Sequence record: PX667085.1
Strand: one strand, 5' to 3'
From: a phage
Length of the DNA stretch: 64,000 nucleotides
The notes under the pieces are model-generated. The model did no database searches and was not told where the DNA came from. It worked only from the letters and a program-made list of their open reading frames with translations. This document shows positions 40,204 through 61,483 of the stretch, piece after piece (positions within the stretch are counted from its first letter, which is position 1; every line of letters starts with the position of its first letter). Made by a program: the position numbers and the translations under genes.

Positions 40204-40537
40204 TTTTCTCTCCTTCGTAATCCTGAATTCTATCTAGCACCCATTGTATACGATGTTTGTTTTTATGGCAAATAAGTTTTTTATGTTCGAAGGTGTATTC
40301 TTCATAACCACCTTCATTGAACGGGAAATTGTAATCTAATCCTGCACCAATAAACTGGGATTTCATCTCTTGTTGTAGACGAGGTAACAGTTCATCAGGG
40401 TATGTTCCCTCTACATACTTAATCAAACATATGCACAAACCACTCGTTGTGTGACCTTCTACCTCACCAGCAAACCAAGCTTTGTAAAACTTCATTAGAC
40501 GTAAGCTACTCAAGGGAACATTTTTACTCTCTTGCAT
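40193..40537 (-). CDS. paralog-family protein G
   Basis: FYKAWFAGE...SGLCICL...FPFN...CH...HRIQWVLDRI; tandem with F. Confidence 0.6.
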   Translation of the reverse strand: MQESKNVPLSSLRLMKFYKAWFAGEVEGHTTSGLCICLIKYVEGTYPDELLPRLQQEMKSQFIGAGLDYNFPFNEGGYEEYTFEHKKLICHKNKHRIQWVLDRIQDYEGEKNDK

Positions 40538-40559
40538 GACAATCTCCTCTCATCGTTAG

Positions 40560-42030
40560 CCATCTTTCATGGCAATCATCAATCACCAACATCATACGAT
40601 CAATCTTCGGCAATTACAATCGAATTATCATAGGGGATTCCTATCAATTATCCTATATATACCGATTATTTTTGACACCCCATTCTTGTATAAAAAGTAA
40701 CCCAAAATATCTACGGGGAGAGATTATTTCGACACACCCTGTTTCATGGCAATCACGGCAAGAATATCTAATAGAATCAATATGATATGGCAAAAATCAT
40801 GGCGTATACGTAAGAAGTGCTTAACGCGAATTTTCGGGCCGTCAGGTCCACGCAGCGACAATTCCCAAATATCATGCGAATGAGAATAATTATCATTCGT
40901 ATTCAATGACTTATGCAAGGCTCATGCCAACGTAGCGACAAGGTGGGCCACTCGATTATAAATCACACAAACACTTATTTATCAATGGCTTGGCAACTTC
41001 ATCATATGACGGAACAATGTCAACTAATCCCGCTCATGACAAGCAGACTATTATTTATATGAGAATGATTATTATTTAAACGTTTATTAACATAAAAACT
41101 AAAATAAATCAAGATTATTCTGATTTTATTTACGTTTAAGAGAAGATGCTCAACATCCTACCGGATCGCCGTTGGCAATCCTCGGATATTTACGCCCCCA
41201 TGATTAAGGTTTATCTCTTTCTTAGTGCTCAACATTCCCGCCCGTGGCGGTAACATTTCGCCCCCAAAATTATTGACTTTTATTCTATTATGTGCATAGT
41301 GTGCAATGTATCGGAATGATGATAATCATCCTCCCATTGCCCCCAATAATTATTGCCATGCTAATGATTTCATATTGTAACCATTACAATGATTATTGTT
41401 ATTGCGCTAATGTTATGATCTTGGTAATTACATATAATGCTAATAATAAGCCAGCGCAATAAGTGTAAGCGTCATTACGCTTGCAATTATTGCAAGCTAC
41501 GCAGTAACAAGAAATAACCATCACCGATGGTTATGATTGTTGGGGTGTAGTTGGCTTATTATTAGCTCGCTATGTGTCCGGCATAGCGTGCTAATGATGA
41601 TCCTGGGAATGATTCGTTTTGTAATGATTTCATTCAGTCACTATTATGGCAATAGTTATTATTTTAATGGTTTCGTTTGTTATTGTTCGTTAGTTGGTTG
41701 TTTTGTCGTGTTATCGTTATCTTGCTTAGTATTCATCATGGTTTGATTGTTTGTCGTTATCAATCATCTTGCTATTATTCCTTTGATTATGATTAGTTTG
41801 CTTATTGTTTTAGGTTGTTGGTTAGTTAGTTGTTGCGAACTGTTATCAACATTATAGTTATGCGCTTATATTGCATATATAATCATGTATAGATGATAAT
41901 GGTTATCATTGCACTAGAAAGGAGGTAAAAGGGTGTTTTTGATGGTTTGTTGTTGGTTGTTGATCGATTTTAACCGCTATAAATGGCTCTCTAACAGCCT
42001 GTTACCCTGGGAGGTATGGTTATTCGTTTA
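40560..42030. repeat. 1.4-kb non-coding palindrome- and repeat-rich region (candidate origin/regulatory hub)
   Basis: No convincing ORF; GAGAATrATTATyATT at 40882 and 41061, ATGATAATCAT-type palindromes, T/G-rich short repeats. Confidence 0.5.
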
Positions 42031-42111
42031 ATGGTTGATTAGCTCGATACCGCGATTTATTCAATTTTGTTCTGTGTCGGTTTTTCATAGGGGAAAGCTA
42101 TCAACATTGTT

Positions 42112-42154
42112 CGGGCAAAAAGAAAGGGCGCTTGGTGCGCCCCTTGTTTTGTTG
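42112..42154. terminator. bidirectional intrinsic terminator
   Basis: GGGCGCTTGGTGCGCCCC hairpin flanked by A- and T-tracts. Confidence 0.65.
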
Positions 42155-42158
42155 TCAA

Positions 42159-42578
42159 TTATAACGCTTCATAGATTGAGTAGATCCGGTTTGCCAGGTC
42201 ATTACGAAAGCGGAATTTTTCATCACGTTTGATCATCAGATCCTTAAAACCGCATTCTTTCAGTGCTTCATTAACTTTATGGCGGCAAACGTTCATATTA
42301 TCCTGCGCGTCACCAATAAACTTATTGCTGTGATGCATTGCTTTGATCTCTTCCTCTAATACCAGGGCAACTACACGGATCGGATCAAGCTGATATGCGG
42401 TAACATCCATGCGGCATTGTAAACGGCTTTTAACATCGTTTACCGGATATACTGCAACCTCTTCCCCGTCAACGTTCACGATAACCAATTTACCATCGAT
42501 TTCGAAGCCTTTGGCGGCGCTACCGTGACAAAAAGCGTTATCGAAGGAGTAAGCTGGATTATTTGATTTAATGTTCAT
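42159..42578 (-). CDS. hypothetical protein
   Basis: 139-aa ORF; promoter TTGACA within CCCCTATTGACAGGGG upstream. Confidence 0.55.
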   Translation of the reverse strand: MNIKSNNPAYSFDNAFCHGSAAKGFEIDGKLVIVNVDGEEVAVYPVNDVKSRLQCRMDVTAYQLDPIRVVALVLEEEIKAMHHSNKFIGDAQDNMNVCRHKVNEALKECGFKDLMIKRDEKFRFRNDLANRIYSIYEAL

Positions 42579-42688
42579 GGTGTTGTCCTTTGTTTCGTTT
42601 CGTTGTTTGCTGCCAGTGAGTTAAATATAATATAACGCCGATCCCCTGTCAATAGGGGATAGCGCATTATTTACATTTCTTTACGTTA

Positions 42689-42709
42689 AAGGGCGCTTGG
42701 TGCGCCCTT
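42689..42709 (-). terminator. terminator-like hairpin
   Basis: AAGGGCGCTTGGTGCGCCCTT, same hairpin as 42126-42143. Confidence 0.45.
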
Positions 42710-42717
42710 GTATAATC

Positions 42718-43086
42718 TTACTTTGTGCTGTTGTAAACGTTATCGCGTTCAACCATCACGGCAAGGCGGATCAGTTGATCAGTTGTATCGCGTAAATTGT
42801 CGGGCCATGTTTTACTGTTCCAGCTATCCAGGTTTGACTGTATATAGGTTTCAATGGCTTGATCCATATTATCAAACAAGTTTTCCTCCAGGCTCTCGGC
42901 TGTTTCACACTGGAAAGCATTAGCGACACTATTAATCAATAAGCAAGCCAGTAAATCAGCATTACGCCAATTTTTACGGATAGTTTCATCTGTCAAATAA
43001 CCAACGAGATTAACCTTTGCGCCAGTGGTTGACGTTGCGATCACTTCTTGTGCTTTTTCAAGTGCTTTAATTGCTGATTTGCTCAT
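42718..43086 (-). CDS. hypothetical protein
   Basis: ORF; start at internal ATG (MSKSAIK) after AGAGGAAAAG. Confidence 0.5.
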   Translation of the reverse strand: MSKSAIKALEKAQEVIATSTTGAKVNLVGYLTDETIRKNWRNADLLACLLINSVANAFQCETAESLEENLFDNMDQAIETYIQSNLDSWNSKTWPDNLRDTTDQLIRLAVMVERDNVYNSTK

Positions 43087-43164
43087 CTTCTTTTCCTCTT
43101 TGTGGGCTTGCTGTATTGCTCGCCCTACGCAATAACTATAAATTAACAGGAGAAACAAAGCAAG

Positions 43165-43398
43165 CTATTTTTTATAAAATTTTTCTGCTGTGATATTCTT
43201 CCCAGTAGGCTTAACCACTTGCAAGATCTTATCATGTGCCGAACGTCCAAAAGAGTAAGATCCGTACACGGTAAACCAATAATCCCCGTTCGGTTGAACG
43301 GTTACGGCGGCGTACGGTGTACCTCTTTCATTATCCCCGATAAAGTGAGAAACATTACCGTTAACATTTGGTTTAGTGCTTTTAATTTGTTCGATCAT
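43165..43398 (-). CDS. hypothetical protein
   Basis: 77-aa ORF preceded by PeSL-like cassette. Confidence 0.5.
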   Translation of the reverse strand: MIEQIKSTKPNVNGNVSHFIGDNERGTPYAAVTVQPNGDYWFTVYGSYSFGRSAHDKILQVVKPTGKNITAEKFYKK

Positions 43399-43416
43399 GA
43401 TATGACTCCTAAATCA

Positions 43417-43475
43417 GGCGGGAAACATTCCCGCCCTACGTGATAAATGATAATGTAAGCGTGATCCGGTGTCAA
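43417..43475 (-). promoter_or_regulatory. PeSL-like cassette: TTGACA-17-TATCAT promoter plus 5' stem-loop GGCGGGAA-ACA-TTCCCGCC
   Basis: -35 at 43470-43475, -10 at 43447-43452, hairpin at 43417-43435, RBS and ATG at 43398. Confidence 0.6.
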
Positions 43476-43787
43476 TAGGTAGGATTGTAAAGATTTGATA
43501 GTTTATCTCTTTGATGTTTTGTTGTTTGATAGATGTTAGCTATCAATATATAGCGGGGTCGTCCGGTGATTATCTTCCCCTGCTCCCAGGTGCCGCCCGT
43601 TCAATAAGTATAACAAAAAACAGGACAAAAACAAGCCCTGTTTATTTATCTTAAAACCAGTTGCCAACCGTTTCCAATAGGTCACTGACTACCAGGACAA
43701 CATTAATCAGCACATATTCGACCAGGAAGGGAATAAGCGCCAGCGTTGCTACTACGATCCCCATTGTGATGATTACCTTTCTCATGG

Positions 43788-44072
43788 TTAGCGGCTTACG
43801 TAAGCTTTACCGTTTACGGTCATCGGTATGGCCTCAAGGTCTGGATCTTCCTTAAGGTCGCGTGCAAGCTCACCGCAGCGGATACCCTCGAATCCGTAGT
43901 ACTCTGTTGTGCCGTCCTGGAAAGTTTTAGCGGCAAGGCATAGGCGATAATTAACGCCGATCCGGTTTATTGCGTTGATATCGGTTAACGTGATGGATTC
44001 AGGCAAATCATTAGCCATTACAGGCGTGTTAATACCAACAACCAGGGCAACTACTGCGATCATCTTTTTCAT
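43788..44072 (-). CDS. secreted/periplasmic protein (signal peptide)
   Basis: MKKMIAVVALVVGINTPVMA N-terminus. Confidence 0.5.
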   Translation of the reverse strand: MKKMIAVVALVVGINTPVMANDLPESITLTDINAINRIGVNYRLCLAAKTFQDGTTEYYGFEGIRCGELARDLKEDPDLEAIPMTVNGKAYVSR

Positions 44073-44127
44073 GTGTCTATCCTCTTCCTATTGCGTTTAA
44101 TGGGGGCGTTACCGCCCTGCTTATGGT

Positions 44128-44364
44128 TTATTGATTGATGTTATAATGAAAATTATTTTCTTCAATAGCTTTTAAAATAAAAGCCGTGATCGCTTTCGTG
44201 TCTACTTGTTCGAACGTATCAGAATAGCACCAATAATAATCATCCCCTACTTTCGGCGGGTAAACCTGGACAAGGAGATCGCCACCTGGTTGATCTATAA
44301 GCTCAACATGCAAGCCGGATGATTCAGCGGTTTTAACGGCGTTTAATACTGTTGCAATACTCAT
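44128..44364 (-). CDS. hypothetical protein
   Basis: 78-aa ORF; hairpin GGGGCG-TTG-CCGCCCC upstream. Confidence 0.5.
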   Translation of the reverse strand: MSIATVLNAVKTAESSGLHVELIDQPGGDLLVQVYPPKVGDDYYWCYSDTFEQVDTKAITAFILKAIEENNFHYNINQ

Positions 44365-44408
44365 AATCTTTCCCTTTCTGATGTGGGGCGTTGCCGCCCC
44401 TTTGTTGA

Positions 44409-44708
44409 TTAGATCGCTGTTTCCAGTAGTTCGGCTAACGTCTTACCGCCTGATAGTTGGTCTAACGTTTGCTCTTCTGGCAAGAAATTAGCTGATATCA
44501 AACCGACTTGATTCCCTTTGTGCCAATTAGCTTGACGGATGATTCCATCCTTTAAGGATTTTACCGCCATTGTGCAACCGTCGCCAAATGATTCATTTTT
44601 ATGATCCATCACTTCGTAAGCGCCCAGTTTGCTGCTGTTAGGCACCATTAACGCGAATACATCACCAACAACCAGTTTTTCTACGGTAACAATAGCGATA
44701 GTTTCCAT
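44409..44708 (-). CDS. hypothetical protein
   Basis: 99-aa ORF preceded by PeSL-like cassette. Confidence 0.5.
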   Translation of the reverse strand: METIAIVTVEKLVVGDVFALMVPNSSKLGAYEVMDHKNESFGDGCTMAVKSLKDGIIRQANWHKGNQVGLISANFLPEEQTLDQLSGGKTLAELLETAI

Positions 44709-44726
44709 TTTACTTTCCTCATTATT

Positions 44727-44783
44727 GGCGGCACCATTGCCGCCCTACGTGGTAAATATTAGCACACTGGCGATCTGTGTCAA
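44727..44783 (-). promoter_or_regulatory. PeSL-like cassette (TTGACA-16-TAATAT, hairpin GGCGGCA-CCAT-TGCCGCC)
   Basis: Hairpin at 44727-44744, -35 at 44778-44783. Confidence 0.6.
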
Positions 44784-44789
44784 TACTTT

Positions 44790-45176
44790 TTATTCAATAT
44801 AAATCAAATTATCTTCACCAATGTAAGCCGACACGTTCGGCATAAACTTAGCTGCATTGGTTAGGCGGTTGGCTGTGTTAGTGGTGTATATTTCAGGGCG
44901 ATCCCAAAAGCCTACGCCGTGACCGTTACGGGTAAAATGTAAATCATTCCCGATCTGGTTGGCTGTTGCGCCGTCGCTCATTGCCTCAGAGATAGCGGCA
45001 AGATTAGCATTAATAAAGGCTGTTACATCCTGGGCGATCCGTTCGTCCGCGCTAGGAGAAAAATCATAATCGTCTAAGTTATCAATAAAATTACCTTCAT
45101 GATCCCTTGCTGATTCAGCAAAAATAAAGGCTTCTTTATAGCCGTTGATGATTTCAATAATGATTTCTGTTTTCAT
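44790..45176 (-). CDS. hypothetical protein
   Basis: 128-aa ORF. Confidence 0.5.
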   Translation of the reverse strand: MKTEIIIEIINGYKEAFIFAESARDHEGNFIDNLDDYDFSPSADERIAQDVTAFINANLAAISEAMSDGATANQIGNDLHFTRNGHGVGFWDRPEIYTTNTANRLTNAAKFMPNVSAYIGEDNLIYIE

Positions 45177-45397
45177 GCTGTACGCTCGACAATAATAATA
45201 GTTTGCGGGATCTCGTTTTCTACTACTAACAAGGCTTTTTTCTGTGTGATAGATATTTTAACACGTTGTAAAGTAGCGGTAAAATCTTTCATTTCATTAT
45301 GCGCGGATTTAGTACAATGCCAGATCTCAGGCTTACCAACTTGTAAGCCGCGTAAAAATTCCGTTTTGCCTGTTTTGTTCGTGATCATTTGTTTCAC
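45173..45397 (-). CDS. hypothetical protein
   Basis: 74-aa ORF. Confidence 0.45.
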   Translation of the reverse strand: MKQMITNKTGKTEFLRGLQVGKPEIWHCTKSAHNEMKDFTATLQRVKISITQKKALLVVENEIPQTIIIVERTA

Positions 45398-45768
45398 CTT
45401 AACCGATACCGTGGGAAGATAGGATCATATTAGCCATAGTTGCAACTACTCCAACCGATAACGCCAGGCCAACCACTGCAACCGTGAAAATTTTCTCTAA
45501 CATGATTCTACCCTCATTAATGGGCGTTGCACCATTGCCCCGCCCTACGTAATACACTTTACTAGATAACAAATTATTGTCAAGCTTTATTTTACTTCCC
45601 AAACGGAAAATTCGCTGCCTGTTGGGATCATTTTTTTAATCTTGTTTGCTGCCGCTACCAGGTCAACGGCTTGTACTGTAATAATATAACCAATTGTCGA
45701 GGCTGTTGCGTTGAAAGTTTTCATTATATTGCCCTTTAATACAGGCGGGATTAATCCCGCCTTTTTGA

Positions 45769-45939
45769 TTACTCTTCATTATCGCCGTTATAGTATTCAA
45801 TGCCGTTTTCATCGGTTACGGTGATGTTAACGCCACCGATAGCAACACGATCACGGGCAAACGTCATAGCTTCATTTAAATCTTCAGACCAAAAAATATT
45901 GTGACCTTTGCGCGATACATAAAACATAGTCGGGATCAT
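45769..45939 (-). CDS. hypothetical small protein (57 aa)
   Basis: Table ORF 45769..46023 trimmed to ATG downstream of hairpin 45963-45983. Confidence 0.45.
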   Translation of the reverse strand: MIPTMFYVSRKGHNIFWSEDLNEAMTFARDRVAIGGVNITVTDENGIEYYNGDNEE

Positions 45940-46024
45940 GATTTGTTTCTCTTCTGTTATGAGCGGTGGACCATTCCGCCGCCCTATGTGGTAAACTTTA
46001 CTACGTTGTTTGCCTGCTGTCAAA

Positions 46025-46309
46025 CTATTTTTTAATGTTTTGCCCTACAAAATCGATCACTTCCTTAAGCTGTCTCTCTGTCATGATCGTACCTGGTAAC
46101 TCTTCTTTAATTTCTTCCGGTAAATAGATATTACCGCGCCAGGTTAACAAACAACCGTTTTGATCTTCGCAGATAGAATAAGAAAACATCCACTCGCAAT
46201 CATTTTCAAGCTCCCAAAAACACAAAAAGTCTTCTTTCCCTAAGTTTTCAACGGTTAAACATAATCCGCGACGTGCTGCATAATTAGTTAGGCTTTTTGT
46301 GATTTTCAT
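46025..46309 (-). CDS. hypothetical protein
   Basis: Table ORF trimmed to MKITKSL start below hairpin at 46331-46346. Confidence 0.5.
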   Translation of the reverse strand: MKITKSLTNYAARRGLCLTVENLGKEDFLCFWELENDCEWMFSYSICEDQNGCLLTWRGNIYLPEEIKEELPGTIMTERQLKEVIDFVGQNIKK

Positions 46310-46507
46310 GATTTTTCTCTCTTCTTGTGAGCGGCACCATTGCCGCCCTACAAGATACATATTACCAGATTAAGCGGACTTGTCAAACTATTTTTTCTTT
46401 TTCTTTGCTTTCAATCGTCTAAGGTTACGGCTGGACTTATTGCGCAAGGCGCTTAGATCGTCGTACCCTTTCCATGCTTGCATATCTTTCGGATTCATGT
46501 TATCCCC

Positions 46508-46669
46508 TTACTTGTTAGCCGGATCATATACCAGGACCGCGCCGCTTGCTTTCACGCTTTCCGCTTCATAGTTGCGCAGATCGTTTTCTGTAAGATTGAG
46601 CGCGATCACTTCCTCGATCTCAACGCCAGCGGCAAGGGCGATCTCTTTGATAATATCTGTTGTTTTCAT
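46508..46669 (-). CDS. hypothetical small protein
   Basis: ATG (MKTTDII) after AAGGTG; table start lies in upstream gene. Confidence 0.4.
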   Translation of the reverse strand: MKTTDIIKEIALAAGVEIEEVIALNLTENDLRNYEAESVKASGAVLVYDPANK

Positions 46670-46897
46670 GGTGTGCACCTTATAAGATGATTGATAAGAT
46701 AGTGACAACGAAAGCGATTATACTGATGGCAAATGTCATCTTTTTACCTTCGGATACTGCCGGATTTTCTACCGTGTATTCTACTGTGTACTTGCTCATC
46801 GTGTAATCCTCTCGTTTGCTTTGGGAACTATTCCCGCCGCCCTATGAATTAAATATACACTATCTCAAAATGATTGCAAGCCTTTTTCTAAATTACT

Positions 46898-47182
46898 TTA
46901 TTCAGTAAACAAACCATCATTTACAACGGCGGCGATGATCTCCCGTGCCATTGATTCAGGGAAAGGGGCGCTATAGTCCTGGCTTGTCTCATCGGTATCG
47001 GTGATCCAATGATAAGCTAACGAGTAAAAGCCTTTACTAACTGTTTTCAGTGAGATGATGATCACTCGGTCAAGCTTATTGGTGAATGTTGCCGTTAATG
47101 TGTTACCCTCCTGCGTCATGTTGGACAAGTAAGCGAGATCATTAATCAGGGAAAACATTAGCACGGTGTTAGCTTTACTCAT
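46898..47182 (-). CDS. hypothetical protein
   Basis: Trimmed to MSKANTV start below hairpin 47203-47218. Confidence 0.5.
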   Translation of the reverse strand: MSKANTVLMFSLINDLAYLSNMTQEGNTLTATFTNKLDRVIIISLKTVSKGFYSLAYHWITDTDETSQDYSAPFPESMAREIIAAVVNDGLFTE

Positions 47183-47253
47183 GATTGCATCCTCAAAGGG
47201 GCGCGGCACTATTGCCGCCCTACACGATAACTATAACACAATGTAAAACAGGG

Positions 47254-47460
47254 TCAACCTTTATTTTTCCACGGTGTCAGCTTGTTAATCATTGGTGATA
47301 AATAGCGTTTACCAACGTAAAACAGTACGCCAACTGATGCAACGGCGGCGACCTCATGCATAGCCGACGGGAAACGGGTATCATAATAAGATCCAATAAT
47401 AGCAATAGCGGCAACGGCTGCAACGTCGATAATGATTTTCTCTTGTTTTGCGGTGATCAT
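47254..47460 (-). CDS. small membrane protein
   Basis: IIIDVAAVAAIAIIGSYY hydrophobic segment; hairpin 47483-47497 upstream. Confidence 0.5.
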   Translation of the reverse strand: MITAKQEKIIIDVAAVAAIAIIGSYYDTRFPSAMHEVAAVASVGVLFYVGKRYLSPMINKLTPWKNKG

Positions 47461-47545
47461 AGTATTTACCTTTTTGTATGGTGGGGAACTATTCCCCGCC
47501 TGATGTAATACAGTTTAACAGGTCCGGTTATGGTGTCAACCACTT

Positions 47546-47731
47546 TTAAAGATATTTTATGCTAATGACGTTTTCAGGTTTTACCTTGTTATGATGTGCA
47601 TCAACATAGATCAAACCATCGTCAGAAAAGCCCAGGATCACGCCCTGCGCGATAAAACCGTACTCGTCACGGTAACGCACGGCTATTTTTAATGTTGCGT
47701 TGTAGGCTGTTTTAAGCTCGTTTAAAGTCAT
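47546..47731 (-). CDS. hypothetical protein
   Basis: 61-aa ORF. Confidence 0.45.
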   Translation of the reverse strand: MTLNELKTAYNATLKIAVRYRDEYGFIAQGVILGFSDDGLIYVDAHHNKVKPENVISIKYL

Positions 47732-47758
47732 TTTTGTTTATCCTCTACATGTAAAAAG

Positions 47759-47781
47759 AAAGGGCGCTTGATGCGCCCTTG
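47759..47781 (-). terminator. intrinsic terminator (minus strand)
   Basis: AAGGGCGCATCAAGCGCCCTT hairpin followed by TTTCTTTTT on minus strand. Confidence 0.55.
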
Positions 47782-48012
47782 TTATGTTAATCCTCTAAAT
47801 CCATCCAATTATATTTGTCACTCTTCCCGCGCTTTGTTTTATTACGCTTGTCACCTTTGCGGATCACTTCCTCGTTCCAGGCCTTGCGGATCTTGGAAGA
47901 TTGAATTTTTTCTGCGCGATTAGATGTATTCATTTTGTTTCCTCTTTATATGAGCGGCACCATTGCCGCTATATTGTTAATTTAAACTGTTTTGTAAAAT
48001 TGTCAAGGTTTA

Positions 48013-48366
48013 TCATTCATAAGAGCAAGCAAGGATCACGCCTGCAATATAAAGCCAATAATTTTCCCTTTCTCGTTGGATTTTATCATCGCTGCTATTC
48101 TCTTTAATGTATCCCCAGGATGTTAACAAGCGATCAATTTCCCAATATTCGAAAGCTATATTAATATCTGATGGCAAACCTTGTAACCATGATGCAAGTG
48201 CTTTAACAATACTATAATTAAAACGTGATTGATTATCAGGGTACCAGTACTCGGAATTAAAACGGCGCATCAATTCCGCGATCTTCTCTTTTTCGGTTGT
48301 AATACCGTAATCATTAAAATCGATAGCGGCAAGGATGTACTCTTTAATTGCATTTTGTGCTTTCAT
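48013..48366 (-). CDS. hypothetical protein
   Basis: 117-aa ORF; hairpin 48385-48401 upstream. Confidence 0.5.
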   Translation of the reverse strand: MKAQNAIKEYILAAIDFNDYGITTEKEKIAELMRRFNSEYWYPDNQSRFNYSIVKALASWLQGLPSDINIAFEYWEIDRLLTSWGYIKENSSDDKIQRERENYWLYIAGVILACSYE

Positions 48367-48444
48367 GGTCTTTCTCTCTTTTTAGCGGGAACTATTCCCG
48401 CCCTACGTGTAACAGTTTACTGAAAATTAAATCCGTGTCAAGCT

Positions 48445-48666
48445 TTATTTTGTTACTACCATTTGGTACCCTGTTTCAATGTTAGTAAATACTGTTATCC
48501 CGTCCTGGCGTTCACTCATTAGCATACAAGGCGCTAACATCCTTTCTACTGCCTTGCACTCATTGTAAACGGCGGTTATGTCTCCTGCGGCCTTGTCTTC
48601 TGTGGTGAATGTATCGTTTATGTAAACTTGACTAGCGACAACGGCGACAATAGCGAAAGTGATCAT
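48445..48666 (-). CDS. hypothetical protein
   Basis: 73-aa ORF. Confidence 0.45.
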   Translation of the reverse strand: MITFAIVAVVASQVYINDTFTTEDKAAGDITAVYNECKAVERMLAPCMLMSERQDGITVFTNIETGYQMVVTK

Positions 48667-48739
48667 GATATTTTTCTCTTTATGTGTTTCTATTAGTTGA
48701 TATTACAGCAATTCGCAGATTATTTTTTAGCAATTCGTG

Positions 48740-48958
48740 CTATTTACTCATAACAGTATCGAAAACAAATTTTTCTTTGTTGTCAAAGCTCACGTATCCG
48801 ATTCTACCACGCAAGCCGCAAGTAGTGCCGTATTCGTAACCGTCAAGACCTTTAACCTTCCAATCCACGCCCATTAAAACCGCATTATATTTCTGACCAA
48901 CTACAAACGCGCCACCAGTTGATTCAATGCAAACAACTTTAATTTTACGGATTGCCAT
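48740..48958 (-). CDS. hypothetical protein
   Basis: 72-aa ORF. Confidence 0.45.
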   Translation of the reverse strand: MAIRKIKVVCIESTGGAFVVGQKYNAVLMGVDWKVKGLDGYEYGTTCGLRGRIGYVSFDNKEKFVFDTVMSK

Positions 48959-49296
48959 TTTCTTTCTCTCTTTCTGGTGATTGGTTTCTCTTCTCTATAG
49001 CGCCCATTGTAAGGCGCTATAACGAAAAGTCAACGATTATTTTTTAAGGCTTAAAGTACCTAACTTGTCAGCATGACGCAGACCAGGGAAGATCCATTTG
49101 CCTGACTCATCTTTCACCGGGGCTTTAAGCGTAGCGCCCAGGTTGGCGGCGTTAACTTTACGTGCAACGTTGCGAGCGGCTTCACGGGTAGCGAAAGTGA
49201 TCATGGTGTTTTCCTCTTCTCTTTGTTAGGCGGTGGACCATTCCGCCGCCTTGATGTAATACAGTTTACTTTATTTTATTAAGATTGCAAGCGGTT

Positions 49297-49512
49297 TTAT
49301 GAAATAATTGTCAAAGTAAAATCATAAGACTGATTTAATTTATATTGTACTTTATTGCCGTAGTAGTCACCTTTACGTAAAGATCCGCGAATACCTATCA
49401 CATCCTTTACATCTTTAAGATTTTTTACGCCTGTAATGTCTTTATTGAAATACTCGTCATCTGAAAATAAAACTTGACTTGCATTTTTTAACAGTGTACG
49501 GATATTAGCCAT
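49297..49512 (-). CDS. hypothetical protein
   Basis: 71-aa ORF preceded by PeSL-like cassette. Confidence 0.5.
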   Translation of the reverse strand: MANIRTLLKNASQVLFSDDEYFNKDITGVKNLKDVKDVIGIRGSLRKGDYYGNKVQYKLNQSYDFTLTIIS

Positions 49513-49537
49513 CGTGATAATCTCTCTTCTGTTGTGA

Positions 49538-49593
49538 GCGGCACTATTGCCGCCCTACGTAATACAGTTTACTCTTTTTCTTTCCGGTGTCAA
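49538..49593 (-). promoter_or_regulatory. PeSL-like cassette (TTGACA-16-TAAACT, hairpin GCGGCA-CTAT-TGCCGC)
   Basis: Hairpin 49538-49553, -35 at 49588-49593. Confidence 0.6.
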
Positions 49594-49602
49594 CAATCTT
49601 TT

Positions 49603-49830
49603 TCAGATTAATTCATCCAGGCATAACAGGCGATCAACGTTGAGATCGGTTAGGCTGATGGTTGGCACCTGGTAGGATTCGATGTACTCAACGCTTGTAT
49701 ATTCCCCAAAATTAGCAATAGCCCATTTATTCAAGATCTCACATACATCATTAATCTTTTTGTTTGTTACAACTGCAATGACCTGGGAACTGCCAACGGT
49801 GCCGGATACGCGAACAATATTGATAGCCAT
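49603..49830 (-). CDS. hypothetical protein
   Basis: 75-aa ORF; hairpin 49852-49872 upstream. Confidence 0.5.
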   Translation of the reverse strand: MAINIVRVSGTVGSSQVIAVVTNKKINDVCEILNKWAIANFGEYTSVEYIESYQVPTISLTDLNVDRLLCLDELI

Positions 49831-49920
49831 AATCTTTAATCTCTCTGTTTTGGCGGGAAACCACTTCCCGCCCTATGTGATACATCTTACACTAATTTTA
49901 AACGTTGTCAACTGTTTTTA

Positions 49921-50160
49921 TTACATTCCAACCATCGCGGCACGGATCGCAGTAGTGCTATATTTGAAACCGTCTGGCGTTTTATCTTGTCCAGTTTGTT
50001 CCAGAAAAAGCATCATATCCCGCGCCGCATCATTACGATTAGCATTAGCGTTAATAAAATCTTGGGCCAACCGGTATAACGATTCATCGTTATTAATCCA
50101 AAGGCTTACATTCCAATGAGTTTTGTTTTTGTGACCGTTGTACATTTTAGATTTAGCCAT
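49921..50160 (-). CDS. hypothetical protein
   Basis: 79-aa ORF; hairpin 50185-50201 upstream. Confidence 0.5.
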   Translation of the reverse strand: MAKSKMYNGHKNKTHWNVSLWINNDESLYRLAQDFINANANRNDAARDMMLFLEQTGQDKTPDGFKYSTTAIRAAMVGM

Positions 50161-50249
50161 GATTTTTCTCTCTTTTTCAGTGAGGCGGGAAGTGTTCCCG
50201 CTCTCTATGTAATACAGTTTACTCTTTTTATTCGTGCTGTCAATGCTTT

Positions 50250-50615
50250 TTATAAATCTTTTTTACGTTTTACATCGCTCGCATGACTGTATACAGTGAT
50301 CCCATTGTCACGGCAAAAACGGGAAAGATACGCGCCGCGTGAAAACTCTTTACCTTCCATATTAATAACCTTGCTAAATTCTTCCAGGGCGACGGTATCA
50401 AAATGATCACCATAGCCATATTGAAACGGAACGTTAACCACCTCGATCAGTTTACCGCCGATCTCAACGTCAACCATTAAAGAAAAATATGTGTTACCGT
50501 AGGACTGTTGAAACCAGCGACGGGCGCTAATGTGCACCGCTTCAATGCTGGATAATTCAATTTTAGCCGTGTTAGCCAGGGTAGCATAAGCGGAAACATT
50601 GATATTAATAGCCAT
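50250..50615 (-). CDS. hypothetical protein
   Basis: 121-aa ORF; hairpin 50643-50655 upstream. Confidence 0.5.
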   Translation of the reverse strand: MAININVSAYATLANTAKIELSSIEAVHISARRWFQQSYGNTYFSLMVDVEIGGKLIEVVNVPFQYGYGDHFDTVALEEFSKVINMEGKEFSRGAYLSRFCRDNGITVYSHASDVKRKKDL

Positions 50616-50912
50616 GATGATAATCTCTCTTTTTGGTTAGTGGGAAGTATTCCCGATAAAAGTTATTATGCTTATACTATCACTCATTGTCAATAGTATA
50701 AGACTAAAACTTTTAACGATAATCGTTATAGGCTTTATTGACCTGGCGAATGTAACATTCGAAAGCAAGATCAATGTATTCGTATTCACGCACATAATCA
50801 CCATAGGTCACTACATACATTTTTAAAGTTTCCTCATAAGCCAGGAGGATCGAATCTAAACCTATAATCTCAGTTTTTGCAATGATAGCCATGATGTTAA
50901 CCTTTTATTGTT

Positions 50913-50969
50913 GGCGGCACCATTGCCGCCCTACGTGATAAACTATACCAGAAGTTTAAACAGTGTCAA
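50913..50969 (-). promoter_or_regulatory. PeSL-like cassette (hairpin GGCGGCA-CCAT-TGCCGCC, -35 TTGACA)
   Basis: Hairpin 50913-50930, -35 at 50964-50969; precedes short ORF about 50700-50893. Confidence 0.55.
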
Positions 50970-50975
50970 CCGTTT

Positions 50976-51338
50976 TTATTCGTAAATTTTACCGCTTTCG
51001 GCCCATACCATAACGCGGCGCATACTATCCCAAGTGTTTTGATCCAGGTTTAATCCGTGCAATTCTTCGGTACTTCCCAGACCAGGTACCGCCTTGTTGT
51101 AAGTTGCATATAAGCGCCCTTGATACTCATACGCCAGGGTGAGATCCGTTTGAATCATCTTTTTAAGCATAGCATTAAGCATCATATTAGCGGCATGTTG
51201 ATCACGTTTTAGCGGTAACATATCAATAAGGGCGCGATAAGCTGAAACATGAATATCAACCGTTTCACGTGGTAAATTTTTCATCTCATCGCGGAAAGAT
51301 ACCAGATTAAACATGATAGTATTGATTTGCTTGCTCAT
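50976..51338 (-). CDS. hypothetical protein
   Basis: 120-aa ORF; hairpin 51360-51381 upstream. Confidence 0.5.
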   Translation of the reverse strand: MSKQINTIMFNLVSFRDEMKNLPRETVDIHVSAYRALIDMLPLKRDQHAANMMLNAMLKKMIQTDLTLAYEYQGRLYATYNKAVPGLGSTEELHGLNLDQNTWDSMRRVMVWAESGKIYE

Positions 51339-51607
51339 TGTGTTACCCTTTTTTGTTTTGGCGGGGAAGTATTCCGCCGCCCTATGTGATACATCTTATC
51401 AGATTAAAAAACGTTGTCAAGAATATTTTTTAGAAAATAATAGCCGCTACTACAACCCAAAATGGAACGGCGAAAATGAGAGCGTTAATCGTTCCAACCG
51501 TCAAGCTATTTTCTTTATTAATCATTGTAAGCCTCTTGCATAATTTCACTATGAGCGGCACCATTGCCGCCCTACGTGGTAAATATTATGCCAGTGGCGG
51601 CGATATG

Positions 51608-52174
51608 TCAAAGACTATTTTCAAAGTTTTCTAGTGCGATCCTTTTTTCTTCCTCTGTCGGCTGATAATCAGGAAAAGCATCAACACACAACAACGGCGG
51701 GATCTCTTCGTACTCTTCCTCTTCCGTTGTCTCCTCGTCTTCCTCCTGGGCTATGGCTGCAATTTTGGCTAATTTTCTTTCGGCTTGAATCAATTTACCA
51801 TCAAGTACGTTTTTTGCCATGTTGTAAGCGGTCCAGGTGATGCGCTTACTTTCCAGGGCCTGATCGAGCGCCGCTATCTTGCTGGGGTATTCATCCAGGA
51901 CACGAAAAGCCGGATCAATTTTGTACAAAGGATTATCTTTCGCGCCGTCGCTCGCATCTTCCGCACTGGATAAATCAGCGTTACCATTTGCCAGCCAGCC
52001 AGGGCGCACATAACGCGCTTTTACGTTGCCGTTACTACGTGCTAACCTGTTACCTATTTGCTCACCGCTATATCCCGTGGATTCATCGATAAGATGATCG
52101 GGAATGATGCGCGGATCATCTGCTTCATGTTTTACCCAAGACTGGATCACATATTCGCGGCCCATATTAACCAC
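51608..52174 (-). CDS. hypothetical protein with acidic C-terminal region
   Basis: 188-aa ORF. Confidence 0.55.
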   Translation of the reverse strand: MVNMGREYVIQSWVKHEADDPRIIPDHLIDESTGYSGEQIGNRLARSNGNVKARYVRPGWLANGNADLSSAEDASDGAKDNPLYKIDPAFRVLDEYPSKIAALDQALESKRITWTAYNMAKNVLDGKLIQAERKLAKIAAIAQEEDEETTEEEEYEEIPPLLCVDAFPDYQPTEEEKRIALENFENSL

Positions 52175-52424
52175 CTTTTTTCAACAATTGGCATACTTTG
52201 AAAAGACTTGCTGAATCCTTGCAAGGGTAGAAAGATGTACGATAATCACGTACGCCAACCTTGCGGATCTCGATGTTTTCGCATGTTGTTTGATCAAAGA
52301 TATTTATTTCATCACGCCCCCTTATATAAACATAGTGGGGATGTATTAACGCATATTTTGCTAATCTGTAAAAAGCGTTATCTTTGAACGCGATCACGTG
52401 ACCTTTTAATTTGATGTAAAACAT
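52167..52424 (-). CDS. hypothetical protein
   Basis: 85-aa ORF; hairpin 52443-52459 upstream. Confidence 0.5.
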   Translation of the reverse strand: MFYIKLKGHVIAFKDNAFYRLAKYALIHPHYVYIRGRDEINIFDQTTCENIEIRKVGVRDYRTSFYPCKDSASLFKVCQLLKKGG

Positions 52425-52500
52425 TCTACCACCTTACAAATAGCGGGAACTATTCCCGCTTTATGTAACATATTAACAAATTATTCGTTAATGTCAAGCT

Positions 52501-52773
52501 TTAAAGCAAAAACGCTACATCTTGCGCTTTTAGTGTAGTATCAACCATTTTTGGGCTTTTATAATCAACAAAGCGCGCGGTTTTTTCAATAGCAAAACCG
52601 AGATAATCTTGTTTATTGAATTTACATTCTTTCTTAAATGTTTCCCGCGCCACGGTGATCGCTGCGTCCAGGGATAAACGCCCGTCAATGTTGATATTTG
52701 CGAAAGATCCGCCACCGCTCATAGGTTTACCAGTGGTGCCAGCTACGATCATTGTTGCGCTATATGATGCCAT
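52501..52773 (-). CDS. hypothetical protein
   Basis: Table ORF trimmed to MASYSAT start below hairpin. Confidence 0.5.
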   Translation of the reverse strand: MASYSATMIVAGTTGKPMSGGGSFANINIDGRLSLDAAITVARETFKKECKFNKQDYLGFAIEKTARFVDYKSPKMVDTTLKAQDVAFLL

Positions 52774-52795
52774 GATGATAATCTCTCTGTTGTGA

Positions 52796-52856
52796 GCGGC
52801 TGGACCATTCCGCCGCCCTATGTGGTACATCTTATCAGGTTGTTGTTTGTTGTCAA
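52796..52856 (-). promoter_or_regulatory. PeSL-like cassette (hairpin GCGGCTGGA-CCA-TTCCGCCGC, -35 TTGACA)
   Basis: Hairpin 52796-52816, -35 at 52851-52856. Confidence 0.55.
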
Positions 52857-52862
52857 TACTTT

Positions 52863-53060
52863 TTATTCTATTCCTGCAATTTGATTAACGCGCTTGCATT
52901 TTGTAGCGTGCTGGTCTTCTGTAATGACTCCCATTTCTAACAGGGAATCAATGAAAGATAAAACCGTTTCATGATCATCCTGGGGATGACTGAACTCAGT
53001 AAAACCGTTTACTATTACGTTGATTTGTCCAGCTTTCGCCACAATATGCAATGTTGCCAT
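52863..53060 (-). CDS. hypothetical protein
   Basis: 65-aa ORF, last gene of the array. Confidence 0.5.
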   Translation of the reverse strand: MATLHIVAKAGQINVIVNGFTEFSHPQDDHETVLSFIDSLLEMGVITEDQHATKCKRVNQIAGIE

Positions 53061-53195
53061 GATCTTAACTCCAGGTGATAAATGATGTTTTTTGTTGGTG
53101 GACGGTGGATTATGGAGATCCTCACCTTTGCCCGTCCTGCATTGCGCCCTCCTGTTGTTTATTGTCGTTGTGCCGCGCCCCCCTCGACAAGATGA

Positions 53196-53224
53196 ATACT
53201 ACGCTACCAGGTGAGGAACGTCAA
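53196..53224 (-). promoter_or_regulatory. sigma70-type promoter TTGACG-17-TAGTAT (minus strand)
   Basis: Divergent from the plus-strand promoter at 53258. Confidence 0.45.
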
Positions 53225-53257
53225 CCACTTTTTCAATCTTTTTTATTTTCTTTTTGC

Positions 53258-61432: not shown

Positions 61433-61483
61433 TCCATCCTTGTATTAGTGCCATAGAGCGTGATTACATCAAGGAGATTTTTA

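Follow-up and report, generated by a model that had tools for sequence, protein, structure and literature searches.

[quoted passage not shown] A published description of an element combining a promoter with a leader hairpin was not found in the literature. The RefSeq record of phAPEC8 nevertheless annotates both halves of such an element, with the hairpin labelled 'PHIRE promoter', e.g. the orthologue of cassette c44783 described below carries the entries 'host dependent promoter (MEME)' and 'promoter determined with PHIRE'.

The window, i.e. the whole 64-kb stretch of DNA analysed here, belongs to a Phapecoctavirus (Stephanstirmvirinae), an E. coli phage of the phAPEC8 type, and not to a T4-type phage. 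The first-pass annotation had matched its promoter and stem-loop cassettes to the PeSLs of T4-type phages, which holds for modular recombination in a hyperplastic region but not for the anatomy: while the PeSL stem-loop is found upstream of or inside the promoter, the hairpin lies here downstream of the predicted start site, making the likeness functional and evolutionary rather than anatomical. We consider it reasonably likely that the array is the hyperplastic region in which a coliphage of the phAPEC8 type keeps its accessory genes, built with a reusable cassette that acts as host promoter, protective leader hairpin and recombination repeat.

The cassette array

Direct reading and scans of the window gave 21 cassettes on the minus strand at 43.1-52.9 kb, in line with the roughly 21 first proposed. 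Each unit is about 90 bp long and reads A-tract, TTGACA, 16-17 nt, TAnnnT, around 10 nt, a GC-rich hairpin, 13-27 nt and SD-ATG. The number in each name is the start of the -35 hexamer:

c52856, 52774..52868 (-): A-tract, TTGACA, 16 nt, TAAGAT, hairpin GGGCGGCGGAAUGGUCCAGCCGCUC ~52818-52794, SD, ATG 52773
c52497, 52425..52509 (-): TTGACA, 16 nt, TAATAT, hairpin AGCGGGAAUAGUUCCCGCU 52460-52442, ATG 52424
c51611, 51526..51623 (-): TTGACA, 17 nt, TAATAT, hairpin 51572-51553, ATG 51525 (31-aa hydrophobic peptide)
c51420, 51339..51432 (-): TTGACA, 16 nt, TAAGAT, hairpin GGCGGCGGAAUACUUCCCCGCC ~51381-51360, ATG 51338
c50969, 50893..50981 (-): TTGACA, 16 nt, TATAGT (with TG), hairpin 50930-50913, ATG 50892
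c50693, weak variant, 50616..50705 (-): TTGACA, 17 nt, CATAAT, short hairpin GGGAAUACUUCCC (-5.5 kcal/mol), ATG 50615
c50243, 50161..50255 (-): TTGACA, 16 nt, TAAACT, hairpin core 50201-50185, ATG 50160
c49911, 49831..49923 (-): TTGACA, 16 nt, TAAGAT, hairpin 49872-49852, ATG 49830
c49593, 49513..49605 (-): TTGACA, 16 nt, TAAACT, hairpin 49555-49536, ATG 49512
c49290, 49205..49302 (-): TTGCAA, 16 nt, TAAACT, hairpin AGGCGGCGGAAUGGUCCACCGCCU ~49252-49229, ATG 49204
c48441, 48367..48453 (-): TTGACA, 16 nt, TAAACT, hairpin 48402-48384, ATG 48366
c48006, 47934..48018 (-): TTGACA, 16 nt, TAAATT, hairpin 47970-47953, ATG 47933
c47539, 47461..47551 (-): TTGACA, 16 nt, TAAACT, hairpin GGCGGGGAAUAGUUCCCCACC ~47501-47481, ATG 47460
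c47257, 47183..47269 (-): TTGACC, 16 nt, TATAGT, hairpin core 47218-47203, ATG 47182
c46879, weak variant, 46800..46891 (-): TTGCAA, 16 nt, TATATT, UAGGGCGGCGGGAAUAGUUCCC, 3' arm decayed (-7.8 kcal/mol), ATG 46799
c46386, 46310..46398 (-): TTGACA, 16 nt, TAATAT, hairpin 46348-46329, ATG 46309
c46023, 45940..46035 (-): TTGACA, 17 nt, TAAAGT, hairpin GGGCGGCGGAAUGGUCCACCGCUC ~45984-45961, ATG 45939
c45583, 45504..45595 (-): TTGACA, 16 nt, TAAAGT, hairpin GGGCGGGGCAAUGGUGCAACGCCC ~45545-45522, ATG 45503 (34-aa hydrophobic peptide)
c44783, 44709..44795 (-): TTGACA, 16 nt, TAATAT, hairpin 44744-44727, ATG 44708
c43475, 43399..43487 (-): TTGACA, 17 nt, TATCAT, hairpin 43436-43416, ATG 43398
c43163, 43087..43175 (-): TTGCTT, 17 nt, TATAGT, hairpin GGGCGAGCAAUACAGCAAGCCC ~43125-43104, ATG 43086

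A scan for the complete module under strict criteria (TTGACA allowing up to one mismatch, 16-18 nt, TAnnnT and a hairpin of -11 kcal/mol or lower within 35 nt) yielded 17 minus-strand matches between 42.0 and 53.2 kb, none on the rest of the minus strand of the window and one on the plus strand, as against a mean of 0.02 in 200 dinucleotide shuffles. A covariance model, as called for in the first-pass annotation, was trained on 11 cassette copies and found 15 sites in the window, all on the minus strand and inside the array (43099-52828), and no match in the remaining 82 kb of the closest genome. Apart from a single isolated copy ahead of an alx/TerC-like gene, the element is confined to the array region. 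The genes of this hyperplastic region are small and of unknown function, and since 21 of about 35 have a cassette, placing one before 'almost every' gene was an overstatement. The three hairpins originally quoted are present at 44727-44744, 48385-48401 and 49852-49872. It was also correctly foreseen that open reading frames run across hairpins and thereby gain artefactual N-termini, i.e. the mechanically called 52501-52830 and 45399-45602, as well as at least one GenBank CDS (Ro121lw AXA27807, L005 3897-4100).

The -35 hexamer is exactly TTGACA or TTGACC in 18 cassettes, TTGCAA in two and TTGCTT in one. All 21 promoter sites match the consensus at 9-11 of 12 positions, several with an extended -10 TG, and are preceded by a tract in which A makes up 67-86 % at positions -10 to -4 relative to the -35 hexamer (background 31 %), a position agreeing with the proximal UP subsite. 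The proposed sigma-70-type promoters (TTGACA, 16-17 nt, TAnnnT) with UP-like tracts are thus supported. Such near-consensus promoters would recruit the unmodified host sigma-70 RNA polymerase, so that each small gene would be strongly transcribed, presumably early in infection.

Position, folding and conservation of the hairpin

The GGCGG core begins 10-12 nt past the -10 box, i.e. further away than the 5-10 nt initially given, and in our hairpin catalogue this is also where the paired region most often starts. Automatic parsing of the 21 window copies returned +10 to +12 in 14 and other values elsewhere, the parse being misled by outer weak pairs or internal loops in the remaining copies. The distance from hairpin to ATG varies between 13 and 27 nt, and the hairpin is tied in position to the promoter rather than to the ribosome site. 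When 20 leaders were folded, each formed one 5'-proximal hairpin with the rest unpaired (z-scores -0.5 to -4.5), with two weak stems (c50693 and c46879). Of 68 strand comparisons, 46 favoured the fold of the sense strand over that of the antisense strand. A U-tract is absent after all 21 hairpins, none of which passes a coding-strand terminator scan; terminators with U-tracts occur separately at 47780, 43643 and 42145. Considering the missing U-tract and the fixed distance from the -10 box, the first-pass reading of the hairpin as a 5' leader structure rather than a terminator is correct, as far as sequence and folding can tell.

Further promoters, terminators and hairpins of the region are:

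53061..53236 (-): promoter of the first array gene (53060-52863); TTGACG, 17 nt, TAGTAT
48959..49045 (-): variant promoter c49033; TTGACT, 16 nt, TACAAT, 11-bp hairpin 49022-48995 overlapping the -10 box
47760..47780 (-): intrinsic terminator within the array; 8-bp GC stem and U-tract
45743..45762 (-): intergenic GC hairpin without promoter or U-tract; phAPEC8 breakpoint at 45756
44385..44400 (-): intergenic GC hairpin without promoter; GGGGCGGCAACGCCCC
44103..44118 (-): intergenic GC hairpin without promoter; AGGGCGGUAACGCCCC
43618..43643 (-): intrinsic terminator; 9-bp stem and U-tract, indel breakpoint in tuntematon, phiWec179 and nepoznato
42689..42709 (-): intergenic GC hairpin without promoter; nepoznato breakpoint at 42687
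42579..42664 (-): promoter without leader hairpin, ahead of gene 42578-42159; TTGACA, 17 nt, TATATT
42123..42145 (-): intrinsic terminator, end of the array

With its hairpin over the -10 box, c49033 is the sole copy in the canonical PeSL arrangement. Upstream of the first array gene, relatives carry a canonical hairpin where the window has around 120 bp of unrelated sequence (53195-53073).

Selection on the stem is indicated by close copies, between which 51 changes fall in the flanks and none was found to break a pair of the core stem; those changes that do disrupt pairing affect the outermost pair or outer pairings that are spurious. How far structure rather than sequence is conserved, as first stated, depends on the part of the stem. 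Sequence conservation holds for the outer GGCGG/CCGCC stem and the UAG preceding it, and compensatory changes are limited to the inner stem and divergent variants. In the model-based alignment, the outer four of the eight pairs are invariant, only one pair shows a C-G to G-C swap, and G-U/G-C/A-U exchanges are also seen. A structure-derived alignment of 62 distinct hairpins from seven phages, divergent variants included, shows two-sided changes in 11 of 16 pairs (5.5 in shuffles), and this wider covariation is visible only there. Judged from these alignments, the covariation is genuine, if less extensive than first claimed. Fourteen of the 21 copies contain the 8-mer TAGGGCGG unchanged, and c43163 has it with one base altered. 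Variation is seen in the length of the stem (6-10 bp), in the loop (3-5 nt) and in the sequence of the inner stem, and fully different stems, for instance GGGGCG-ACAAG-CGCCCC and GGGGAGAA-UAG-UUCUCCCC, occur in the same place.

Possible functions of the hairpin

With transcription predicted to start at a conserved A or R that lies 6 or 8 nt past the -10 box, the mRNA would open with 3-5 unpaired nucleotides and then form a GC-rich stem-loop of 6-10 bp. For this hairpin, 5'-end protection or insulation of early mRNAs would be the most likely role: it may shield the 5' end from RppH and 5'-end-dependent RNase E and keep the ribosome site free of pairing with the 5' sequence, and any gene placed behind the cassette would be predictably expressed. 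In read-through RNAs from upstream promoters, it could also block 3' exonucleases. Judged from work on the ompA leader, 3-5 unpaired 5' nucleotides would leave protection against RppH and RNase E partial at best. In addition, the conservation of the outer stem and the UAG exceeds the need of a purely structural role, which counts against this explanation. Such conservation would be accounted for if UAGGGCGG and the stem were a recognition site for a phage or host protein, either an RNA tag marking early transcripts for timed cleavage, protection or translational control, or a palindromic DNA operator just past +1 silencing the early promoters. It fits this idea that, one further gene aside, the element is restricted to a single co-regulated block. 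Yet the variable stem length, loop and inner stem and the wholly different stems in the same place speak against it, and sequence identity is also explicable by recent duplication and gene conversion, as crossovers map inside the conserved sequence. No candidate binding protein for the hairpin motif was identified, and we regard a recognition site as doubtful, albeit with some chance of being right.

Following the PeSL proposal, the hairpin could instead terminate or attenuate transcription from the upstream gene, with the adjoining promoter restarting it. Besides the lacZ results from RB49/phi1, it is in favour of this that most genes have no other terminator between them, owing to upstream stop codons only 3-12 nt from the -35 box. 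However, lying downstream of the cassette's own promoter, the hairpin would equally stop that promoter's transcripts, and the lack of any U-tract next to genuine terminators in the same array, as well as the spacing fixed relative to the -10 box, make termination unlikely. The phAPEC8 record labels the 20-mer 'putative promoter determined with PHIRE', which would make it a phage-specific promoter. This label reflects its over-representation upstream of genes, but PHIRE reports repeated motifs, not promoter activity, and the 20-mer forms a perfect hairpin, follows a near-consensus sigma-70 promoter at a distance of 8-10 nt and varies by compensatory changes. We also know of no phage RNA polymerase in the phAPEC8-type group, and this reading is hardly credible. 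Finally, the hairpin could be a functionless passenger of cassette duplication and recombination, given that a few sequence types are each common to many cassettes. In the equivalent array of the rV5-like phage Gotham, only four of 28 promoter-like sites pass the hairpin scan, plus one by eye, and the orthologue of gene 50892-50713 has a promoter without hairpin, suggesting that such orthologues are expressed without it and that the hairpin is dispensable for expression, a point that also weighs against the protective role. Since conservation is far higher in the core stem than in the adjoining flanks, observed changes retain pairing and stems have decayed in only two of the 21 copies, a mere passenger is nonetheless improbable.

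Recombination at the cassettes

Relatives were compared for indels bounded by cassettes, as first recommended, which pointed to the cassettes as recombination points. In phAPEC8 and nepoznato, the promoter half of c43475 is joined to the hairpin of c43163 and gene 43398-43165 is missing; likewise, nepoznato joins the promoter half of c49593 to the hairpin of c49290 and lacks gene 49512-49297. Breakpoints fall in cassettes in 12 of 25 cases, while cassettes make up 17.7 % of the region (p = 5e-4), although selection against events that disrupt genes would likewise be expected to enrich breakpoints in intergenic DNA. A 362-bp indel at 46508, comprising a cassette plus gene, has just one cassette taking part, with microhomology no better than TAA, counting against repeat recombination. 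Still, the chimeric cassettes at missing genes, the enriched breakpoints and the altered unit order in the phi92-like phage EmilieFrey support PeSL-like modular shuffling, as far as genome comparison can indicate. According to these comparative data, the cassettes, which have identical blocks of 8-18 nt in common (CGTAGGGCG, AGTAAACTGTATTAC), act as dispersed direct repeats at which non-allelic homologous recombination deletes, replaces and reorders promoter-gene units, yielding a presence/absence mosaic among relatives. Individual cassettes also mark such events, i.e. a segment that is replaced in phiWec179 is bounded on its left by c46386, and c45583 contains a breakpoint (45547/45548) in both phAPEC8 and phiWec179.

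Anatomy and extent of the cassette array

The spacers between the array genes on the minus strand repeat one module, in which the upstream stop codon sits in an A-rich tract, followed 5' to 3' by TTGACA, 16-17 nt, TAnnnT, the conserved stretch G/T-T-A-Y-Y-A-C-R-T-A and a GC-rich hairpin mostly opening with GGGCGG, and then by an unstructured A/C-rich leader, a GAG-type Shine-Dalgarno (SD) sequence and ATG. Twenty-one such cassettes were counted (-35 starts from 52856 to 43163), in keeping with the roughly 21 of the first-pass annotation, whose three example hairpins were all found in place. The block holds ~35 genes, however, and therefore only ~60% of these have a cassette of their own, not 'almost every' small gene as had been claimed. 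With 9-11 of 12 consensus matches, the 21 promoters are near-consensus sigma-70 promoters, and the A-tract previously noticed upstream of -35 was confirmed (A makes up 67-86% of positions -10 to -4, counted from the -35 hexamer, vs a background of 31%), which we take to fit the proximal subsite of an UP element.

The array is not expected by chance: a strict composite scan gave 17 matches on the minus strand of the region and 0 elsewhere on that strand in the 64 kb, compared with a mean of 0.02 matches in 200 dinucleotide shuffles. Folding of 20 predicted leaders gave a single 5'-proximal hairpin each, the remainder being open (z-scores -0.5 to -4.5), and showed decayed hairpins in two cassettes, c50693 and c46879 (named by the window coordinate at which the -35 hexamer starts). 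No Rfam covariance model matched 41-54 kb on either strand at E <= 1. The ten largest array proteins matched only PHROGs of unknown function and, in a Pfam search, no family. Of note, two tiny ORFs, 51525-51430 (31 aa) and 45503-45399 (34 aa), encode hydrophobic peptides and have a cassette each; the latter is conserved in the rV5-like phage Gotham and unannotated in tuntematon, while the Ro121lw record calls a 67-aa ORF across the cassette.

The hairpin begins within the predicted transcript in 21 of 22 copies, 8-12 nt beyond the -10 box. Pairing in the hairpin catalogue most often opens 10-12 nt past the -10 hexamer, and an automatic parse placed it at +10 to +12 in 14/21 window copies, while in the rest weak outer pairs or internal loops misled the parse; the spacing from hairpin to ATG is variable (13-27 nt). 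The usual start of transcription is a purine that follows a pyrimidine, 6-8 nt past the -10 box. Considering this spacing together with the conserved A-C-R, transcripts would therefore begin ACRUAGGG... or RUAGGG..., leaving 3-5 unpaired nt before the stem, with the A at +6 or the R at +8 past the -10 box as the putative start site on promoter geometry only. No mapped transcript 5' ends for the Phapecoctavirus-type group were found in the searchable literature, and an MFE-based measure of SD accessibility was uninformative.

A role of the cassette hairpins as terminators was rejected as improbable, since none of the 21 has a U-tract or a terminator-like flag on the coding strand and each lies downstream of its own promoter; their description as leader structures in the first-pass annotation is supported. 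Other hairpins and related promoters in and around the array are the following.

47780-47760, minus strand: terminator with U-tract, in the array
43643-43618, minus strand: terminator with U-tract, in the array
42145-42123, minus strand: terminator with U-tract, in the array
45762, 44400, 44118 and 42709, minus strand: GC hairpins without promoter or U-tract, in the array
53224, 49033 and 42652, minus strand: related promoters without downstream hairpin

The promoter at 53224 (TTGACG, 17 nt, TAGTAT), which precedes the first array gene, has been kept while its hairpin was lost. The ~120 bp upstream of that gene (53073-53195) show no homology to the matching stretch in tuntematon, Ro121lw and nepoznato, where the counterpart is, in at least tuntematon and Ro121lw, a canonical promoter-plus-hairpin cassette. 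Past the terminator 43643-43618, which is overlapped by a promoter-like TTGTTT, 16 nt, TATACT, lies a ~140-nt non-coding stretch (43655-43490, minus strand, TTATACTTATTGAACGGGCGGCACCTGGGAGCAGGGGAAGATAATCACCGGACGACCCCGC...) that is conserved in Gotham (~2570-2490 of its locus L004), has no Rfam match and could represent a small RNA or leader.

Phage lineage and distribution of the cassette

By megablast, window 44-52 kb matched 268 phage records, with Escherichia phage vB_EcoM-P3322 on top (99% identity, 100% query coverage) and Mt1B1_P17, tuntematon, Ro121lw and phAPEC8 next; all are Phapecoctavirus (Stephanstirmvirinae) with genomes of ~150 kb. Therefore, the locus does not belong to a T4-type phage, the setting in which it had first been placed; the relatives are members of the Stephanstirmvirinae and Vequintavirinae. 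In tuntematon, the counterpart of the region is gp014-gp048, small minus-strand genes called 'hypothetical protein'. The array is also matched, at 83-93% identity, by between 9 and 19 'Campylobacter phage' entries of GenBank (MG0656xx, 87-146 kb), which look like rV5/phi92-type coliphages filed under a Campylobacter host.

A single 73-nt cassette used as BLAST query matched 145 records, by name either coliphages of the phAPEC8, phi92 and rV5 groups or records with other-host labels matching those, and an exact 20-mer search of IMG/VR returned 6 contigs only. In P3322, over the window and a further 82 kb of the genome, the cassette is restricted to the array and one solitary copy. The latter (11361-11436 of the P3322 locus L012, at ~81.36 kb of the genome, plus strand; TTGACA, 16 nt, TAAGAT, GAAGCGGGGAAUAGUUCCCCGC) is distant from the array, well inside a block of plus-strand genes, and precedes a gene whose annotation is inner membrane protein alx (TerC-like).

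The homologous array of Gotham, scanned as for the window, has 28 promoter-like sites, 13 of them with exact TTGACA, yet only 4/28 passed the hairpin scan and one further hairpin was found by eye; the Gotham orthologue of gene 50892-50713 has a promoter without a hairpin. Thus, the hairpin is an optional addition to the promoter.

Parts of the repeat are annotated in the phAPEC8 RefSeq record, where TATTGACA...TTACCAC (37 nt) is a 'putative host dependent promoter determined with MEME' and the adjoining GTAGGGCGGCAATGGTGCCG a 'putative promoter determined with PHIRE'. Thus, the repeat had already been noticed in 2012, but was taken for a phage promoter; the PHIRE 'promoter' reading of the hairpin was rejected here. 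A literature search on PeSL-like (promoter-early stem-loop) elements, promoters and transcriptomes of phAPEC8, rV5 and Phapecoctavirus found no description of the element, and no paper treating the repeat as a hairpin or tying it to gene shuffling.

Pairing conservation and recombination

Hairpins were collected from the window and six relatives, i.e. tuntematon, phAPEC8, Ro121lw, phiWec179, nepoznato and the phi92-like EmilieFrey. Several stem families share one position in the cassette.

GGGCGGCA-AUGG-UGCCGCYC: stem family
GGCGGGAA-UAG-UUCCCGCY: stem family
GGGCGGCGGA-AUGG-UCCACCGCUC: stem family
GGGGCG-ACAAG-CGCCCC: stem family
GGGGAGAA-UAG-UUCUCCCC: stem family
AGGCGGUGG-AAUAGC-CCACCGCCU: stem family

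Because stem lengths differ, a MAFFT alignment of full cassettes misaligned the 3' arms and was set aside, and structure-derived and covariance-model alignments were therefore used. In the N-padded structure-derived alignment of 62 distinct hairpins, which is biased towards structure since each 3' base is set opposite its MFE partner, 96.3% of the cells were paired vs 78.7% in shuffles, 11/16 pairs had changed on both sides vs 5.5, and the covariation score was 0.240 vs 0.083, the observed values being reached by 0/500 shuffles. A more conservative view is given by a covariance model built from the commonest class alone and aligned to 81 hits, in which 4/8 pairs, the outer ones, are invariant, two show one-sided variation (G-U, G-C, A-U), and at one, C-G is exchanged for G-C in 12 distinct sequences.

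Counted as minimum-spanning-tree steps among close copies, there were 51 changes in the flanks and no pair-breaking change in the core stem, with disrupting changes confined to the outermost pair or to spurious outer pairings. Owing to G-U pairs, folding is more favourable for the sense than for the antisense strand in 46/68 distinct sequences. Pairing is thus maintained and the hairpin is under selection. Nevertheless, the proposal that structure rather than sequence is conserved was only partly right: pairing is kept and the inner stem and variant classes covary, whereas the outer GGCGG/CCGCC stem is conserved as sequence.

Comparison of the array with five relatives by BLAST revealed a presence/absence mosaic of its genes, with single chimeric cassettes at two gene deletions. 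Gene 43398-43165 is absent from phAPEC8 and nepoznato, which there have one cassette composed of the c43475 promoter and the c43163 hairpin, with the crossover in the shared CGTAGGGCG. Likewise, in nepoznato, which lacks gene 49512-49297, the c49593 promoter is fused to the c49290 hairpin, the crossover falling within AGTAAACTGTATTAC, which both cassettes share. In phiWec179, 46392-45548 is replaced, from the c46386 -35 box through the first base of the c45583 hairpin. EmilieFrey shows a rearranged order of the numbered gene units (g5-g2-g6-...-g4-g7 vs g2-g3-g4-g5-g6-g7), with g30 relocated.

Overall, 12/25 distinct breakpoints fall in cassettes, which make up 17.7% of the region (binomial p = 5e-4), with the caveat that selection alone favours intergenic breakpoints. 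Four of the others are at promoter-less hairpins or terminators (43641, 45756, 42687 and 42147), another (46306) lies directly past a cassette's start codon, and the remaining ones are within or between genes. The expected indels bounded by cassettes do occur in related phages, although there is a counter-example, i.e. a 362-bp indel at 46508 comprising one cassette plus gene right behind a stop codon, without a second cassette. The crossovers resemble those of ordinary homologous recombination between stretches of shared sequence.

Relation to known elements and possible roles of the hairpin

In PeSLs, a sigma-70 early promoter is combined with an AT-rich tract, a stem-loop and an SD with its ATG; they cluster in the hyperplastic regions of T4-type phages, where they flank indels (Arbiol et al. 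2010, PMC2839356; Comeau et al. 2014, PMC4122927). Their stem-loop, which was shown to act as a terminator, is mostly located between -35 and -10 or over -10 in phi1/RB49, and just upstream of the promoter in PST and nt-1 (PMC2839356; PMC4122927). The cassettes described here share the AT-rich upstream tract, the near-consensus sigma-70 early promoter, the GC-rich stem-loop and the 3' SD and start codon, the clustering in a hyperplastic region whose genes have no known function, and the pattern of cassette-gene-cassette in one phage vs a single chimeric cassette in a close relative. They differ by their Stephanstirmvirinae/Vequintavirinae rather than T4-like lineage and by a stem-loop downstream of the predicted start, in the 5' leader, at a fixed spacing from the -10 box. 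The published geometry was found in one copy only, i.e. the 49033 promoter, whose -10 box TACAAT is enclosed by an 11-bp hairpin (49022-48995, TTATAGCGCC-TTACAA-TGGGCGCTATAG). The PeSL assignment of the first-pass annotation therefore holds for composition, genomic setting and recombination signature and fails for lineage and hairpin position (21/22 inside the predicted transcript), and the cassettes, working like PeSLs at the DNA level, were filed as a new architectural variant and not as a member of the class.

Promoter/stem-loop cassette shuffling, so far described for T4-like phages only, is hereby extended to the rV5/phAPEC8/phi92 group, whose members are widely isolated for therapy, with a new architecture in which the hairpin belongs to the mRNA leader. 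Such shuffling gives a concrete mechanism by which small unknown genes come to be present in some of these genomes and absent from others. In addition, annotations can be corrected, since the phAPEC8 hairpin is labelled a phage promoter and several records call CDSs across the cassette.

Integron cassettes are promoter-less, and their movement depends on a dedicated integrase whose substrate is the folded single strand of attC. The array resembles them as a series of small single-gene units parted by imperfect hairpin-forming repeats, which mediate gain, loss and reordering of units, but each unit here has its own promoter and an integrase is not evident. The HK022 put RNA comprises two stems in ~70 nt and suppresses termination by binding to RNA polymerase. 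Like the cassette hairpin, it is a cis-acting RNA structure encoded just downstream of early phage promoters (PMC9378689). In contrast, the element here is a single ~20-nt hairpin without Rfam match, repeated ahead of almost every unit, with few terminators to overcome.

Assuming that the promoters are used by the host RNA polymerase, as their near-consensus sequence suggests, the hairpin would probably serve in 5'-end protection or insulation of the mRNA, a role favoured by the fixed promoter-hairpin spacing, the lack of U-tracts and the open downstream leader. The ompA leader hairpin hp1 and engineered 5' hairpins, described by Belasco and colleagues and by Carrier and Keasling, are mRNA stabilisers; such elements reportedly need a short stable hairpin a few nt from the 5' end, with a requirement for pairing and none for sequence, and their gain in mRNA half-life reportedly depends on RNase E and RppH. 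On promoter geometry, the cassettes would have a short stable hairpin near the 5' end, with an unstructured leader and an SD downstream, but the element is repeated 21 times within a mobile promoter cassette of a virus, its stem is partly sequence-conserved, and the 3-5 predicted unpaired nt are at the limit for protection. The unpaired nucleotides, the sequence-conserved outer stem and the hairpin-less rV5-like promoters all weaken the protective role, and the hairpin may instead be a recognition tag for a protein binding RNA or DNA. It is tempting, if rather a long shot, to speculate that the stem-loop with its invariant 5'-UAGGGCGG does more than stabilise and marks early accessory mRNA leaders with a common 'self' tag, read by a phage-encoded or host factor, so that these mRNAs are spared from phage-induced bulk decay or jointly destroyed or silenced at the early-to-middle switch. 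If so, a mobile leader element would define a post-transcriptional regulon in which any gene captured behind a cassette is automatically enrolled. A search for an Srd-like or RNA-related protein near the divergent promoter at ~61 kb yielded nothing beyond a replication-initiator-like protein and matches to PHROGs of unknown function. The array provides ~20 natural predicted strong promoter/5'-hairpin/RBS parts for testing effects of 5' structure on mRNA fate during infection.

The initiator-like protein (61460-62470, plus strand, 336 aa) matches PHROGs for replication-initiator (O-like/DnaD-like) and endonuclease families. Downstream of the array, ~40300-42100 (~1.8 kb) has no annotated gene in tuntematon or phAPEC8; a tRNA scan of the whole window found none, and the stretch is therefore not a tRNA cluster. 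It contains several inverted repeats and dispersed AT-rich repeats, among them four copies of ATGAGAATGATTATTATT (40880, 41059, 41383 and 41893), and may be an origin or another cis element.
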